Shown here piece after piece: positions 11,502 through 61,722 of a stretch of DNA of 64,000 bases. The position numbers and the translations under genes are program-made. The number at the start of each line of letters is the position of its first letter. Position 1 is the first letter of the stretch. The stretch is from sequence record NC_106597.1, one strand, 5' to 3'. The DNA is from Escherichia phage BB1. Below the pieces are notes generated by a model. It saw only the letters and a list, made by a program, of their open reading frames with translations, was not told the DNA's origin and did no database searches.

Positions 11502-11513
11502 ATGATGTATAAT
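11485..11513 (+). promoter_or_regulatory. sigma70-type promoter with CATAAATTTGAGAGAG initial transcribed region
   Basis: -35 TTGGCA, 17-bp spacer, -10 TATAAT 11508-11513. Confidence 0.5.
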
Positions 11514-38981: not shown

Positions 38982-40195
38982 TCTTTATCTCCCTCGGTGG
39001 AACCTTGAGGTCTACCACCTTCTTGACCAGATACGCCTGTTGCAGAACCAGCAACGTTAGCAGGAATACGAATCTTATTCATCTGCTCATCATCTAAAGG
39101 TTCAAGGTTCAGCTCTAAACGAGCTTCGTTACCAGTTATAATACCATTATTAACCAATGAGGTTAAATGTTTAGCCTCAGATTCTTTATCTGGTGTTAAT
39201 GCAGCTACTTCCTTAGTATTAGGAGTAATCTTATAACCAAAAAAGAAAGTAAGAGAACTAGTCAGCTTGTTCAGCATAGGGATGATAGTCATATAGTAGA
39301 ACAATTCGATGTTTGGTCGAATGTTCGCATTATTACCACCATCAAGCAGTACTTGCGGAACACCAAAGGCTAGACAGATAGATTTATTAAATCCTTCAAT
39401 GTCTTCCTTAAAGTCTAGATCTTTAAAAGAGGATATTTGGGAGTACGGTTTAGCTTTCATACCACCATCTAGAATCAGGACAGAGGACTGACCAGTACTA
39501 GGATTATAATCTAGTTGTAATTCTTCTTGTTTACGCTCACGCAATTTCTTGTTCAGGATTTCATCCGTCTCAAGAATAAGACCAATCACGGTTCCGTTAT
39601 CGAGGAATTTCTCTTTAAAGTTAAGCATCTTGGAACGCTTCTCAAGAGAATCAATAACAGTAGCAACACGAGATTGTCCAGAAATTTGAGAGTTTGTGCC
39701 ACACACGTAACTGTTATCCTTTATAAAGATAATCTCATCTACGCGATAGTCTATCTGATTATTAAATATAAATTTTTTGATAAACTTATTGGCATCTGCC
39801 TCTACTTGCATTAGTGCAGCAGGGACATGATAAAGTGCTGTGCCATCCCAATAGATGTATGCACAACCTTCAAAAAGTAGGTCAGTGACTACAAGTCTAC
39901 GGAATGTGCTTATATCCATGAATGGATTAGGTCGTACATTTAAGAGAGTGTCTAGAGTCTTTGTCTTGATGCCATTGGCATACGTGACAATATTATATTT
40001 ATCTCCGACAGTATAAGAACACTCCGCCGCACTATCTATAACCATATTAGCAGTTCTATTGAGAATCTCAATTTTACTGTAGGCTTGTCCAGTGGTAAAA
40101 GGCTTACGGTTAGTGCGATGACTAACTGGTTCCATGTCTCTTATAATACGTTGACCCGGATTTAGCTTTTCAGTAATCCAGCTTTTAAAACCCAT
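38978..40195 (-). CDS. portal protein
   Basis: 405-aa ORF between terminase and protease. Confidence 0.65.
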   Translation of the reverse strand: MGFKSWITEKLNPGQRIIRDMEPVSHRTNRKPFTTGQAYSKIEILNRTANMVIDSAAECSYTVGDKYNIVTYANGIKTKTLDTLLNVRPNPFMDISTFRRLVVTDLLFEGCAYIYWDGTALYHVPAALMQVEADANKFIKKFIFNNQIDYRVDEIIFIKDNSYVCGTNSQISGQSRVATVIDSLEKRSKMLNFKEKFLDNGTVIGLILETDEILNKKLRERKQEELQLDYNPSTGQSSVLILDGGMKAKPYSQISSFKDLDFKEDIEGFNKSICLAFGVPQVLLDGGNNANIRPNIELFYYMTIIPMLNKLTSSLTFFFGYKITPNTKEVAALTPDKESEAKHLTSLVNNGIITGNEARLELNLEPLDDEQMNKIRIPANVAGSATGVSGQEGGRPQGSTEGDKE

Positions 40196-40632
40196 TATAA
40201 GAACCTTGCGAATCCTGATTTTGTTTCAGTCTTGACTTGTGTCTTTTCTTGAGGATTCTGTAATTTGTCTTTCTGCTTTTGAACCCACACTTTTTGCTTA
40301 TTAGCAGAAAATAAAGGAGGTTCTTTTGTGTAAACCTTATGTAATAATTGGTGATGGTGTACACAAAGGGTAACAGTGTCTTCTACTAGCTCATGCCTAT
40401 ATCGATCATAGAATGCCGTCCTATTTGAAAGGACTGTTTCTTCGTCAGTGAAATCCAATTGGAGTTCTTTAGCAAATTTTTTAACTAGTAGAGACACCGT
40501 ATGGTAATGATGAAGCTCTAATTCTTCAGCACAACCGCAGATAGCACATTGAGAGTCTTTTTTATATTGACTTTTTATTCCGTCTCTCATAAGGGATATA
40601 GCATCGCGTTTATATTTTATATTGCTTGCCAT
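40195..40632 (-). CDS. HNH endonuclease
   Basis: CAICGC...LELHHYH...CVHHHQLLH motif; start moved to ATG 40632 with GAGGAG RBS; track ORF extends to 40719. Confidence 0.6.
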   Translation of the reverse strand: MASNIKYKRDAISLMRDGIKSQYKKDSQCAICGCAEELELHHYHTVSLLVKKFAKELQLDFTDEETVLSNRTAFYDRYRHELVEDTVTLCVHHHQLLHKVYTKEPPLFSANKQKVWVQKQKDKLQNPQEKTQVKTETKSGFARFL

Positions 40633-40746
40633 AGTGTTCTCCTCAACTGTATGAATATAGTATACATAATCGTATCGAATTTGTAAAGGGGATTTTAAAA
40701 TGCAGGAATGGGATACCAACTGAGTAGTATCCCATCCTATATTTAT

Positions 40747-42063
40747 TTATTTACCACGGGAAATAGAGTAAATTCCATAGCGCAGCGCATCACAAAGGTG
40801 AGAGTTAGCATCATGACGTGGTTTTTCACGTGATAATTTCTCTTCACCCTCTTGGAAATCCCACTTGTAGTTCTGCAATGCATGGATTAATGAGGAACAT
40901 GAAGCATCTACAATAATCTTACCCTGCTGGAATAGCGCTTGCAAGCATGCTAGACCGTCTAGGACAGATTTTTTAGCTGGAGCTGATGCAATTTCATGTT
41001 CATAAGCTAAGTCCTGACGGAACTGAGCTGCGGCAGAGTCAACAAAAACACGATCAACTTTATAACGATCTATACAGTGCTGAATATACGCAGCATGCTG
41101 AGCTGTAGTTTTCTCCGCCTGCTGGTACTCTTCTAATACATAGTAAGTATCTGTATCATAGTGATATTTAATAGTAAGAACTGCTGTAGGGTCACGATAA
41201 CCAACGTCAATGCCAAGCAACGTTTCGAATGCCTCATCATCTTTAAAGAAGTGACGCATACCTTTGAGGTCTTTAACATGATCGATAGCATTAAAGGTAT
41301 CAAAGATCTGACCTTCGAATACAGAGAAGTCAGCCTCGTATTCCTGGCGGAAGTAGTTTTTACTAACTGTACGGCGTGCTTCCTCAATATCATTCAAGTC
41401 AGCACGCGGGTTATCACGATATGTACCATGAATAGATACCCAGTTAGGCAACGTATCATCAAATCCGTAGGCGTAAAACTCTTTAAACCAGTTACCTCCA
41501 CGAGGGGTGGAAATAAATAGAGCCTTAGAATTAGGTTTATCTAGAGTAGGACGCAGCTGAACCCTGAAGGCATCACCTCCCACATCGGAAATTGCCGCCT
41601 CGTCAAAAATGATAAAATCATATGAACGTCCAACTGCGGAGTCAGCCTGAGCCGCAGAAGCTAGTTTAAATAGAGAACCATTAGCTAACTCAATCTCTTT
41701 ATCTTTAGCGTTCTCACGTTCGGTTTGTAGGCCATACTTCTTAATGAGACCACGAATCTGAGACCATCCGATATTGGCCAGTGAGTAGTTAGGGGCAACT
41801 ACTAGCACCTTCACATTAGGTTCCAGCAATTTTAGGAACCCAAGAGTATATGCTATAAAGGATTTACCTACACGGCGTGACACACACGCCGTTACAAAAC
41901 GATGTCTAGGATCTTCTAGAGCATTGATAATTGCTATTTGAGGACCATTAGGTGTAATACCTTCTTGCGCTAGTATTCCCGAAACAGGCAGACGAAAGAA
42001 ACGTTTGTCTATTCCGAAATCAATAACATCTACTGTGTTAACGTAGGGTCTTGATACTTCCAT
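40747..42063 (-). CDS. terminase large subunit
   Basis: Walker A-like SRRVGKS; Walker B-like FIIFDEAA; 438 aa. Confidence 0.8.
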   Translation of the reverse strand: MEVSRPYVNTVDVIDFGIDKRFFRLPVSGILAQEGITPNGPQIAIINALEDPRHRFVTACVSRRVGKSFIAYTLGFLKLLEPNVKVLVVAPNYSLANIGWSQIRGLIKKYGLQTERENAKDKEIELANGSLFKLASAAQADSAVGRSYDFIIFDEAAISDVGGDAFRVQLRPTLDKPNSKALFISTPRGGNWFKEFYAYGFDDTLPNWVSIHGTYRDNPRADLNDIEEARRTVSKNYFRQEYEADFSVFEGQIFDTFNAIDHVKDLKGMRHFFKDDEAFETLLGIDVGYRDPTAVLTIKYHYDTDTYYVLEEYQQAEKTTAQHAAYIQHCIDRYKVDRVFVDSAAAQFRQDLAYEHEIASAPAKKSVLDGLACLQALFQQGKIIVDASCSSLIHALQNYKWDFQEGEEKLSREKPRHDANSHLCDALRYGIYSISRGK

Positions 42064-42545
42064 TACTTCTTACCTCCAGTAGCTAGGGAAGTAATTAAGT
42101 CCATGTAGTTTTGATCCCCGGCTCCAGCAATAATATTATTCTGGATATTGGTCTGACTAGCAGGAGCTCGGACGGCAGCTTTAGCTTTTTCTAGCTCCAC
42201 CATCATTTTCATCTCTTCCATCTTCATTTTATGTGCCTTCCATAGAATATCCATAATATCCTGGTCAGAACCCATGCCAGTTTCTTCCAGTTCCTCCAGC
42301 TTACGTTTAATAACTTCATCTAGAACACCGAACAAACGATCTCTGTTACGGAAACCACTTTCCATAAAAATATCGTTTAAATAGTTCTTAACTTCACTAC
42401 GATTCATAATATCTCGGAAAGCAATTTCGGACATTCCAAGACTACGTGCGGCAGAAGGCACATCGCTACCACACTGTAAATAAGCTTCAATTACATCCAT
42501 CCCTTCAGGGGACATAAGATCTGGTACTAATACATCATTTGCCAT
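42063..42545 (-). CDS. terminase small subunit (putative)
   Basis: 160 aa with N-terminal HTH-like segment ([21 protein letters not shown]); directly upstream of large subunit. Confidence 0.5.
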
Positions 42546-42555
42546 ATTTCCTCCT

Positions 42556-44328
42556 TTAGGTAAGGCGTTGAACTGTTACTCGTAGTCTCGGTAAGAAAAC
42601 TGCAGAACCTAAACTAACGTGTAGTATAACACCTAATTCTGCATTACCATTACCAAGATTTTTTATTGTATATATAAAACTGTTTCTACTAAAAGCTCCG
42701 CTATCTGGAGTATATTTATAAGCAGAAGTAGTATGGAAAGGCACTAATTTTCCAGGAGGAAGAACTAAAATTTGGTGAAATATAGCATCCCCTCCCGTAT
42801 AACTTTGTGATTTTCTTCCTTGCACCTGAAAAACACTACCATTCCACGTATTTACTGGTAACCCAGCAACATTAAGGTTACCCGATAATATTTCACTAGT
42901 TAGTATAACAGTAGAGTTATTATTTGGTAGGCCTAGTCCAACTGTTGCTAGTGATTTATAAACATTACCAGTGCCCGGATAGGTCGGAGTAATATCATTA
43001 CCAATATAGGCACTAGCCACATTACCGGATAATAGGCGTAAAGGTATTGATGAAGGTCCCCAGACAACACCATTCTCATTACCAATAGTATTATTATTAG
43101 AGTTTACATACCAGGTCTTACTAGCAGAGAACTTATAAATACTAAGTTGTGCTCTTGTACCACTATAGTTGACTGGTGCCCATATAGATCCTTTGTTAGA
43201 GCATACAAATTCACATCTTCCAGTAGTATCCCCAAACACCCCACCATGCGCAGCGTTTACTCCAATATACTCCATATCAGCACGAGAACTTAGATTCCCT
43301 AGAGCATTCTGATTAATAAACTTCCAACCAGTAGTAGATAACTTAACTCCCTTAATAGTAAAGTTGGACGGAGAAATTATTATGTCAGAACCTGTAAAGG
43401 GATTGCTAGAAACAGACATACTACCATTAGAATACCTTAGGTTCAGCACATACCATATAACTTTTGTAGGGGTTACTCCATAACCATCTTGAACTATTTT
43501 TGTATTAGCTGATTGACTTACTAACTTAGTAGTAGAACCTCTACAAACATATCTATACCCACCATCACTAAAGTGCTGTACTATATTGCTAGGGATTGTT
43601 TGTTTGTATCCAGCATACCCCCTAATATTAGAATTACATACATAAAACCAGTTGTGCCCACGTTTACCAGCCCCCATTGGAGCCATCCAGTTAGGATCCC
43701 AATAGTACGTATCACCTGAAGATATAGGAACAGAAGTACTTCCTATAGGATACCCTAGTTGTTTGAAAGTTTCAGCTACAGTAGCACCTACAGGTGCACC
43801 ACCACCTGGTCTTACAACACCATGATAAGTACTATGTAGTACAGTACCGCCAGTACCACTTCTAGCTATAGATTCTTCATGCCCTAGAGAACTATTATAG
43901 GAATAAGTACCTGAAGCTAGACTATTACCAAAAGCAAATCCAGCAGTTTGACTTAAGCTAGCAAATGATCTAAAAGGATCGGCCTGAGGATCGGCCTGAG
44001 TAGAAGAAAGAAACTGCCCAACTTGAGATTGAGTACCATTCAAAAAACCACGATGGGTACCATTAACTTCTATAGCTGTTAGTATAACTCTACCAGGATC
44101 ATTACTCTTTAAGTTAGCTATTGCAGAAGGCATCTGGCATACATAGAAACCATTCCCAGCACTACTTAATGCGCTCTCATAAGTGCTTTCTACTAATACG
44201 AAGGGCATATCAGAATGAAAAATAGTATTAGTACTAGGGTTTTTATGAGCATTAATATCTCCACCACTAGCAGTATTTAGTGATAATACAGTTTTACCAT
44301 CACTATATTTTCCAGCGAAAAAACCCAT
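42556..44328 (-). CDS. receptor-binding protein (pb5-like); receptor not determinable from sequence
   Basis: 590-aa ORF at the end of the late operon, divergent from an llp-like lipoprotein gene. Confidence 0.55.
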
Positions 44329-44353
44329 ATAATCTCCTATTATAAAAATGTAT

Positions 44354-44382
44354 TTGCTTTCATCCCTCTATTTTGCTATAAT
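44354..44382 (+). promoter_or_regulatory. sigma70-type promoter driving llp
   Basis: -35 TTGCTT 44354-44359, 17-bp spacer, -10 TATAAT 44377-44382, then AGATTCATAAATT. Confidence 0.6.
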
Positions 44383-44413
44383 AGATTCATAAATTAGAAA
44401 TGGAGAGATAAAT

Positions 44414-44680
44414 ATGAAAAAGTTTGTGATTGCACTAGTTGCCGCAGTTATGTTATCTGGTTGTGCACCTGCTCCCAAACCATTTTGTACAGGATTTGTA
44501 AAATCTTTTGGTGGTGTGGGAGAAGAACATTACGGTCTCAAGGTTCAAAAAGTTCGTATTAAGGGAGATCGCTTTCCAGTAGTACAGCTCCGTACTAAGT
44601 TTGGATGGTGGGATCTCAGTCAGTTTGACCTTAAATATGGTGATTGTAAATTTAAACTAGAACAATCTAATTACCTGTAA
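44414..44680 (+). CDS. llp: lipoprotein, Llp-like (receptor-blocking superinfection exclusion)
   Basis: Signal peptide with lipobox LSGC; divergent from receptor-binding gene; driven by a T5-type consensus promoter. Confidence 0.7.
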   Translation: MKKFVIALVAAVMLSGCAPAPKPFCTGFVKSFGGVGEEHYGLKVQKVRIKGDRFPVVQLRTKFGWWDLSQFDLKYGDCKFKLEQSNYL

Positions 44681-44727: not shown

Positions 44728-45066
44728 TTGGATGGTGTACTGGCAGAAAACACTATGCAAGAAAATGAGAAGCCCTTCCAGGAACCCATGCCACTTGAGA
44801 TGAATCCTAGGGCAAAAGCAGTTCATGATGCAATTAATGAAATCATTCAGGATGTCATACAAGACACTATGGAAGATGTAATGGGAACATCATTTCTTCT
44901 AGAAGAATCTGGATTTGATGAAATGATGGATCTCGTAGGAACAGTTATAATGGTTCGTGCAATTGCTAGAATATTCCAAATACCACATTTACGGGAGCAT
45001 GAAAGACATGTCAAACGGCAACAAAAGAAAGAACAGGCGCGGAGAAGTGTACGAAGCGTGGATTAA
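44728..45066 (+). CDS. hypothetical acidic protein
   Basis: ORF; start uncertain (ATG 44728 or 44755). Confidence 0.35.
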   Translation: MDGVLAENTMQENEKPFQEPMPLEMNPRAKAVHDAINEIIQDVIQDTMEDVMGTSFLLEESGFDEMMDLVGTVIMVRAIARIFQIPHLREHERHVKRQQKKEQARRSVRSVD

Positions 45067-61662: not shown

Positions 61663-61722
61663 TAATTTATGAACTTATTATACAGAATTTTAAGGCTTAA
61701 AGCAACTGAATTTTTTAATTAC

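Follow-up and report, generated by a model that had tools for sequence, protein, structure and literature searches.

The divergent gene pair analysed here is very probably a BtuB-specific module by which a T5-like phage (Tequintavirus) recognises its host and brings about lytic conversion. It lies in a stretch of 64,000 nt (the window) that is a Tequintavirus genome, and joins a 590-aa ORF to a divergently oriented 88-aa lipoprotein ORF with the lipobox LSGC, an arrangement that the first-pass annotation of the window had given correctly to the base, as judged from the ORF list. Measured by its near-identity to the tested modules of phages DT57C and BF23, the module is an ordinary and already known one. 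On alignment its private features are a QADP duplication in the binding protein and the exchange A35V in the lipoprotein, Llp, and no others.

Both ORFs are real genes. The 590-aa protein matches PHROG 4815 ('receptor binding tail protein') with residues 1-590 against profile positions 1-650 (E=1.5e-254), the 88-aa protein matches PHROG 1119 (E=1.8e-26), and the two genes recur in hundreds of phage records. The binding-protein gene opens the leftward late block and is followed by terS and terL, all on the - strand (Table 1). This order is kept in the DT57C, BF23 and T5 records that we compared, and the gene follows the gene-order rule for pb5/Oad/Hrs genes of Markadamsvirinae (PMC8594841). The divergent layout of the binding-protein gene and llp, which are separated by 85 bp (44329-44413), is also annotated in the records of D1G, DT57C, BF23 and T5.

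Table 1 Features of the binding-protein/llp locus (positions in the window)
Feature	Position	Strand	Basis
terL, after terS	40747-42063	-	ORF list and PHROG search
terS (terminase small subunit), immediately downstream of the binding-protein gene	42063..42545	-	PHROG 3802, E=2.9e-90
Binding-protein gene (pb5/Oad/Hrs family, DT57C-type allele), 590 aa, ATG start	42556..44328	-	ORF list
Perfect 12-bp tandem duplication, GGATCGGCCTGA twice on the + strand	43976..43999	-	TRF
RBS AGGAG of the binding-protein gene, ATG 5 nt downstream	44334..44338	-	sequence read directly
llp promoter, T5 early/pre-early type (predicted)	44344..44395	+	sequence and conservation
AAAAAT upstream element of the llp promoter	44344-44349	+	
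-35 TTGCTT of the llp promoter, then a 17-nt spacer	44354-44359	+	
Extended -10 TGcTATAAT of the llp promoter	44374-44382	+	
Conserved downstream motif CATAAATT of the llp promoter	44388-44395	+	
RBS GGAG of llp, ATG 8 nt downstream	44402..44405	+	sequence read directly
llp, lipoprotein precursor of 88 aa, predicted BF23-type receptor blocker (lytic conversion, superinfection exclusion), ATG start	44414..44680	+	ORF list
Lipobox codons L14-S15-G16-C17, Ala (not Asp) after Cys	44453..44464	+	translation
Imperfect hairpin 3' of llp, stems CATCCAAGTAA / TTTCTTGGATG, 13-nt loop	44700..44734	+	inverted repeat

By homology the 590-aa protein is a receptor-binding tail-tip protein of the pb5/Hrs family, as had been proposed in the first pass. 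The T5 pb5 chains 8b14_B (E=9e-51) and 8a8c_B match it with E of about 1e-50; Pfam and NCBIfam searches returned nothing for this protein. Of the T5 structures, 8B14 and 8A8C are FhuA-pb5, 8A60 is FhuA-Llp and 7QJF is Llp. Compared with T5 pb5, residues 1-106 (the best-conserved block) and 278-535 are conserved, whereas residues 107-277 are divergent. On the same homology, the predicted site of the protein in the virion is the tip of pb4, the central tail fibre. Identities, given as the percentage of aligned residues, are 99.8% to the protein of PS3-1 (one substitution) and 99.5% to that of LmqsSP1 (three substitutions), both Salmonella phages, 97.3% to DT57C Hrs (16 substitutions) and 70.5% to BF23 Hrs, against 37.3% to T5 pb5, which binds FhuA, and 32.6% to the protein of H8, which binds FepA. 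Identities in tblastn are bimodal, with 396 records at 60% or more and 136 below 60%. The allele itself, taken at 95% identity or more, occurs in only 15 phage records, and the next group lies at about 73%. The protein groups with the proven BtuB binders (the clade of BF23, DT57C, EPS7 and phiR2-01), not with the binders of FhuA or FepA.

The closest relatives of the module as a whole are found in the Salmonella phages PS3-1, LmqsSP1, SCF and FGS009 (98% DNA identity). The hrs-llp module of BF23 (genome OR083247), reportedly described by Mondigler et al. in 1996 and 2006, has the same layout upstream of terS/terL and an almost identical promoter region, and the receptor of this phage is BtuB. 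BF23 Llp differs solely in having A35 for V35, and BF23 Hrs is a mosaic, with about 90% identity over the N-terminal 100 residues and about 45% over residues 101-200. The hrs-llp module of DT57C and DT571/2 (and D1G) was described by Golomidova et al. 2016 (PMC4728585). In DT57C the gene order, orientation, promoter and RBSs are the same as here, and DNA identity is 94.7% over 2.1 kb. DT57C Hrs is without the QADP duplication, which the binding protein of the window carries in addition to its 16 substitutions, and DT57C Llp has T11 and A35 where the window has A11 and V35. The mosaic seen against BF23 is a pattern of recombination between hrs and llp that has already been described for DT57C.

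Given 97% identity to DT57C Hrs, the receptor of the binding protein is almost certainly BtuB. Spontaneous resistant mutants were found to carry btuB deletions or IS insertions, from which the authors concluded that DT57C and DT571/2 use BtuB (PMC4728585). With DT57C llp on a plasmid, DT57C, DT571/2 and BF23 plated with an efficiency reduced more than 100-fold and T5 was unaffected, and protection from BtuB-dependent phages by BF23 Llp was reported as well (PMC4728585). The first-pass annotation had held that the sequence does not reveal the receptor. The comparison with pb5-type proteins that it had itself suggested gives BtuB, and the statement is contradicted by the gap between the identities to DT57C and BF23 (97.3% and 70.5%) and those to T5 and H8 (37% and 33%), and by an Llp that matches that of BF23 at 87 of 88 positions. 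Its reading of the small gene as a divergent receptor-blocking lipoprotein is borne out by the near-identity to tested DT57C/BF23 modules (PMC4728585) and by the conserved gene order and promoter.

The N-terminus of Llp, MKKFVIALVAAVMLSGC, has a basic n-region, a hydrophobic core and a lipobox with Cys17, and Pfam LPAM_1 matches it at 23.9 bits (cut-off 20). The predicted signal peptide, MKKFVIALVAAVMLSG, comprises the 16 residues before this Cys, leaving a mature Llp of 72 residues that would begin with lipidated Cys17. Lipoproteins of E. coli that have no Asp after the Cys are sorted to the outer membrane (the +2 rule), and the Ala at +2 predicts such a transfer for Llp. G16, C17, Cys25 and Cys78 are invariant in 12 homologues. 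Identity is 87/88 to BF23 Llp and 86/88 to the Llps of DT57C and D1G. The AlphaFold model (mean pLDDT 82.9) is a small beta-rich domain whose sole good match in BFVD is the Llp of the BtuB phage phiR2-01 (E=1.4e-8). Llp is present at 95% identity or more in 174 phage records; set against the 15 records of the binding-protein allele, this fits a blocker that would act on a face that is conserved in BtuB and a binder that would engage variable surface loops.

The promoter of llp was absent from the list of a generic sigma-70 scan because its -35 matches TTGACA at only three of six positions. The first-pass annotation had given the lipoprotein gene its own consensus early-type promoter; the gene does have a putative promoter of its own, with a perfect -10 that carries the TG of an extended -10, and it is at the -35 that 'consensus' fails. 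There are six copies of the -10 with the downstream motif in the window (expected, 0.09) and two of the full pattern TTGCTT-N17-TATAATAGATTCATAAATT (expected, 0.00), so that the site is more than chance. The same architecture recurs at 11508, 11609, 51289 and 61664 of the window. TTGCTT and TATAAT are invariant and in the same position in T5, BF23, DT57C, PS3-1 and LmqsSP1, and a promoter is annotated at the llp position in the D1G, T5 and BF23 records. The type of promoter, together with T5, suggests that llp would be expressed early.

In the mechanism that we propose, the central straight tail fibre would end in a single copy of the binding protein, which would attach irreversibly to BtuB, the outer-membrane vitamin B12 transporter, leading to DNA ejection. 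Soon after infection the host RNA polymerase would transcribe llp from its T5 early-type promoter, and Llp, after export and lipidation on Cys17, would be delivered to the outer membrane, where it would inactivate BtuB as a phage receptor. Superinfecting BtuB-dependent phages would then be excluded, and progeny would not be wasted on cell debris. By analogy with T5 Llp and FhuA (PDB 8A60), periplasmic Llp may bind the BtuB plug and close the extracellular loops allosterically.

The T5 oad(pb5)-llp module shares with that of the window a homologous binder, divergent genes and the TTGCTT and TATAAT elements at the same spacing, as well as the biological role and the terminal Cys pair of a small lipoprotein. 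It differs in its receptor, FhuA, in a binder that is 37% identical with an unalignable central region, and in a mature Llp without significant similarity. The analogy to T5 oad/llp drawn in the first pass is sound with respect to gene order, promoter and pb5 homology; the 'equivalent' lipoprotein is equivalent as a functional analogue, while homology of the mature domains is not demonstrated. Alignment of BF23-type with T5-type Llp by hhalign gave E=5e-7 with the signal peptides kept, and no significant similarity without them (E=0.18 local, 0.96 global). Because the signal vanished in this way, we claim no homology of mature Llp to T5 Llp, and a deep homology between the two was dropped. A phmmer search of Llp against the PDB returned zero Llp chains at E up to 10, and Foldseek with the Llp model (signal peptide included) gave no PDB hit at E<=0.001, with 8a60_B and 7qjf outside the top 50; AF2 reportedly models even T5 Llp inaccurately (PMC9586334). 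In the FepA phage H8, the interval from the binding-protein gene to the gene after it contains no ORF of 50 aa or more, and H8 therefore offers no third Llp type for comparison.

Since mature Llp has no significant similarity to T5 Llp or to Cor, plug-jamming is carried over to BtuB by analogy and not by homology. The small lipoproteins called Cor (NF047972), of lambdoid and T1-like phages, likewise inactivate a TonB-dependent receptor transporter and have PHROG 1119 in common with Llp; their target is FhuA, and the match of Llp to the Cor model is below the cut-off (16.1 against 31 bits, E=0.0085) and confined to residues 1-30, the signal peptide. Llp could be an independently evolved blocker that acts on BtuB otherwise than T5 Llp acts on FhuA, by steric occlusion at the surface or at another site. 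The lack of significant sequence or profile similarity between the mature proteins, the lack of a fold match to 8a60_B or 7qjf and the sub-threshold Cor score would all agree with this, as would the description of the T5 and BF23 Llps as non-homologous in the literature (PMC4728585, PMC10644984) and an older in vitro study which, as cited in PMC9586334, put T5 Llp outside the cell. We nevertheless consider it unlikely. The overall design is shared with T5 Llp: both are small outer-membrane lipoproteins that lack Asp at +2, and both have a Cys pair near the two termini of the mature protein (C9/C62 in this Llp and C11/C58 in that of T5), which the global hhalign comparison aligns. Both Llp types are also grouped in PHROG 1119. 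Furthermore, E. coli is not known to have any mechanism for flipping a lipoprotein of this kind to its surface, and in the view of Van den Berg et al. the FhuA-Llp mechanism should generalise to TonB-dependent transporters. Quite unlikely, in our estimation, is the combined proposal that Llp is an independent invention with a mode of BtuB binding unlike the plug-jamming of FhuA-Llp and that, separately, QADP in a presumed receptor-inserting loop might tune recognition of Salmonella and E. coli BtuB variants.

The QADP duplication itself (TRF period 12, 2.2 copies, 100% match) is in frame and yields QADP-QADP at residues 111-118, at the start of the hypervariable central region, the presumed site of receptor contact. 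QADP is single-copy in PS3-1, LmqsSP1, DT57C and all six closest phage records, and IMG/VR viral contigs contained no exact match to the 12-bp duplication. It is conceivable that the architecture is as described and that the duplication shifts specificity to another TonB-dependent transporter or a BtuB variant: it directly follows the conserved N-terminal block, at the point where T5 pb5 inserts its loop L1 (tip Gln115) into FhuA (PMC9586334), and the central part of the protein is unlike BF23 Hrs, with 19-27 of 50 residues identical per block over residues 101-200. A receptor other than BtuB is nonetheless highly improbable. The four-residue insertion aside, only 16 positions separate the protein from the BtuB-dependent DT57C Hrs, and only one and three from the proteins of PS3-1 and LmqsSP1, while identity to the FhuA and FepA binders is 37% and 33%. 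The cognate Llp is moreover of the BtuB type, and with a mismatched blocker the benefit of the module would be lost.

It is hardly credible that the small ORF is a strict Cor, the lipoprotein with which lambdoid and T1-like phages bring about exclusion at FhuA: the title of PHROG 1119 ('Cor superinfection exclusion protein'), used as product name in many relatives' GenBank records, a weak similarity in tblastn to the Cor protein of phage grams (33.8% identity, E=8e-4) and a marginal BFVD match to the Sie protein of phage CEC_Kaz_2018 (E=2.6e-3) point that way, but Cor membership is ruled out by the NCBIfam equivalog cut-off and by the published finding that DT57C Llp, 86/88 identical, gives no protection from FhuA-dependent T5 (PMC4728585).

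The practical gain is in annotation: BtuB can be entered with high confidence as the terminal receptor of this phage. Cells that are infected or that express llp should be resistant to other BtuB-dependent phages, which is of relevance for the design of phage cocktails and for predicting resistance through loss of btuB.

On the - strand, a mirrored TATAATAG is present at 44337-44344, abutting the RBS of the binding-protein gene. It was rejected as a promoter of that gene, and none is claimed, because the resulting transcript would be leaderless. The - strand promoters given for this locus in the T5 and BF23 records are predicted ones only. Downstream of llp a generic terminator scan gave no convincing terminator and made no call at the hairpin, which on the + strand has no T-run after its stem; with a fold of -15.5 kcal/mol (z = -2.19), the hairpin might mark the end of the llp transcript.

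The divergent gene pair that the first-pass annotation read as a superinfection-exclusion module is a hrs-llp module of the BF23/DT57C type, which is already known, and near-identity to the DT57C/BF23 module of tested function supports that reading as a whole. Such modules were reportedly described by Mondigler et al. (1996, 2006). The divergence of hrs beside a nearly invariant llp, a mosaic, has likewise already been published, and functional characterisation came from Golomidova et al. (2016; PMC4728585). Both ORFs, one for the receptor-binding protein (Hrs) and one for the lipoprotein (Llp), were found where they had been placed, 85 bp apart in the ORF list and the sequence. By megablast, the locus and the surrounding 24-kb stretch match T5-like phages only (Demerecviridae, Markadamsvirinae, Tequintavirus). 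Over the 2.1-kb module, identity is 98% to Salmonella phages PS3-1, vB_Si_CECAV_FGS009, SCF and LmqsSP1, 95% to Escherichia phages HASG4, EASG3, DT57C, DT571/2 and D1G, and ~77% to a large additional phage group; across the surrounding 24 kb, identity to known genomes is ~90-94%.

Coordinates of the hrs-llp module and of the llp promoter elements
Feature	Position	Strand	Remarks
Binding-protein ORF, 590 aa	42556-44328	-	ATG start; AGGAG 5 nt upstream
A-tract AAAAAT	44344-44349	+	upstream element, llp promoter
-35 TTGCTT	44354-44359	+	llp promoter; 17-nt spacer to -10
-10 TGcTATAAT	44374-44382	+	llp promoter
Downstream element CATAAATT	44388-44395	+	llp promoter
llp ORF, 88 aa	44414-44680	+	ATG start; GGAG 8 nt upstream

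The entire length of the binding protein aligns with PHROG 4815 (‘receptor binding tail protein’, E=1.5e-254), and the protein also matches the two solved T5 pb5 chains 8b14_B and 8a8c_B with E about 1e-50, in keeping with the predicted receptor-binding protein at the tail tip; the T5 pb5 alignment covers residues 1-106 and 278-535 and leaves 107-277 unaligned. The receptor had been thought impossible to read from the sequence, a view that comparison overturns. Counted over aligned residues, the protein is 99.8% identical to its counterpart in PS3-1, 99.5% to that in LmqsSP1, 97.3% to DT57C Hrs and 70.5% to BF23 Hrs (both BtuB), as against 37.3% to T5 pb5 (FhuA) and 32.6% to the H8 homologue (FepA), which was found by tblastn. 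Alignment with proteins of known receptor specificity, the check proposed at first pass, thus puts the BtuB-type binders closest and the FhuA and FepA binders far away. Golomidova et al. identified BtuB as the receptor of DT57C and DT571/2, and mutants selected for resistance were simultaneously BF23-resistant and carried a btuB deletion or IS insertion (PMC4728585). Binding proteins of this kind also form three clusters (BtuB, FepA and FhuA) that predict the receptor (Maffei et al., PMC8594841). Together, these identities, the DT57C genetics and the three-cluster rule make the receptor readable by comparison, and it is almost certainly BtuB.

Two related records deserve comment. The binding protein of Salmonella phage Sepoy (MK728825.1), annotated as ‘FhuA receptor-binding tail protein’, is 63% identical to ours, within the BtuB-type identity band, and the annotation is probably wrong. 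In the FepA-dependent phage H8 (L006, AC171169) the binding-protein gene lies at 40326-42362 (637 aa); the gap to the following gene, 122 bp, has no ORF of 50 aa or more, and H8 appears to lack an llp in its normal place.

Immediately behind the N-terminal conserved block of the binding protein, a perfect 12-bp tandem duplication (43976-43999) gives in frame QADPQADP, residues 111-118 of the protein, in its variable region. The QADP unit is single-copy in PS3-1, LmqsSP1, DT57C and all six of the closest phage records, and IMG/VR does not contain the duplicated 24-mer. Loop L1 of T5 pb5 (tip Gln115), which inserts into FhuA, sits at the matching position (PMC9586334). The duplication may lengthen a receptor-contact loop, or may be an assembly or sequencing artefact. 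The sole other private change is A35V in Llp.

Llp begins with a typical lipoprotein signal peptide (MKKFVIALVAAVMLSGC); the lipobox LSGC claimed for it is seen in the translation, and the protein scores above the Pfam LPAM_1 cut-off. All 12 homologues compared keep the Gly-Cys of the lipobox and another two cysteines (C25 and C78). The lipidated cysteine is followed by alanine, for which the +2 sorting rule predicts outer-membrane localisation. In an AlphaFold model from the family alignment the mature part is a confident, small beta-rich domain (mean pLDDT 82.9). Llp differs from BF23 Llp at residue 35 only (V here, A in BF23), and from the DT57C and D1G proteins at residues 11 and 35. With DT57C llp expressed from a leaky T7 promoter, DT57C, DT571/2 and BF23 plated over 100-fold less well, and T5 was unaffected; a much stronger effect of BF23 Llp was found by Mondigler et al., as recounted in the same paper (PMC4728585). 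It is thus established by genetics on the DT57C and BF23 proteins that an Llp of this type puts BtuB out of action as a receptor for phages.

How Llp blocks its receptor is known for the T5 protein only: in the FhuA-Llp crystal structure, T5 Llp lies on the periplasmic face, bound to a non-native plug conformation, and makes two extracellular loops, EL7 and EL8, fold inwards across the site for pb5 (PMC9586334). A phmmer search of the PDB with our Llp found no Llp chain. Both Llps match PHROG 1119, and profile-profile comparison of the two types gave E=5e-7 with signal peptides included; with these removed the similarity was gone (E=0.18 local, 0.96 global). Foldseek matched the model to neither 8a60_B nor 7qjf, and the only good match in BFVD was Llp of the BtuB-dependent phage phiR2-01. 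As for Cor, the NCBIfam equivalog scored 16.1 bits, short of its cut-off of 31, and aligned with nothing beyond the signal peptide. By these comparisons, Llp is assigned to the BF23-type family and is a functional analogue, rather than a demonstrated homologue, of T5 Llp and Cor; the suggested equivalence to the T5 lipoprotein holds for function. The T5 protein is of parallel design, a small outer-membrane lipoprotein with a cysteine pair near both ends of the mature chain, and the pairs (C9/C62 here, C11/C58 in T5) align globally. In 174 phage records the identity of Llp is 95% or more, and the accompanying binding proteins include alleles ~70-73% identical to ours. We would expect such conservation beside a variable binder if the blocker's target were a face of BtuB that is conserved and the binder touched variable surface loops, which fits a periplasmic target for Llp.

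The early-type promoter ascribed to llp is borne out, although it was missed by a generic sigma-70 scan, TTGCTT agreeing with TTGACA in just three positions of six. The window has six copies of the -10 with its downstream motif (0.09 expected) and two of the full pattern (none expected); aligned copies have in common an upstream A-tract, a TTGC -35, TATAAT and an ATAAATT block. The promoter is therefore no chance match. It has the architecture known from the classical early and pre-early promoters of T5. In T5, BF23, DT57C, PS3-1 and LmqsSP1 both hexamers recur unchanged in the same place, and the D1G, T5 and BF23 GenBank records annotate a promoter at this site. Members of a phage promoter family, AAAA(A/T)T, TTGC, TATAAT and ATAAATT, lie at 11508, 11609, 44377 and 51289 (+) and at 61664 (-), the first two 101 bp apart. 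An exact 8-bp inverted repeat, CTATTATA / TATAATAG (44337-44344 and 44377-44384), puts a -10-like element in mirror image on the minus strand, where it abuts the ribosome-binding site for the binding protein.

Gene order follows that of T5: LTF, tail genes, head genes, portal, sciA, terL, terS and the binding protein on the minus strand, followed on the plus strand by llp and genes for small membrane proteins, with the terminal-repeat genes (dmp, A1, A2) next. Upstream of terL, a 174-aa ORF (40195-40719, -) is listed with a TTG start; its true start is probably an internal ATG (MASNIKYKRD...). Its position and cysteine/histidine motifs make it the counterpart of sciA, the nicking endonuclease of T5-like phages. 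In this stretch DNA identity to both DT57C and T5 is down to ~85%, with a break at 40634-40650. Just 3' of llp lies a 103-aa acidic ORF (phrog_16810; 44755-45066, +), ~170 bp of which (insertion 44790-44960) are present in PS3-1 and missing in DT57C, BF23, T5 and LmqsSP1; its H8 homologue (L006 42362-42688) directly adjoins the binding-protein gene of that phage.
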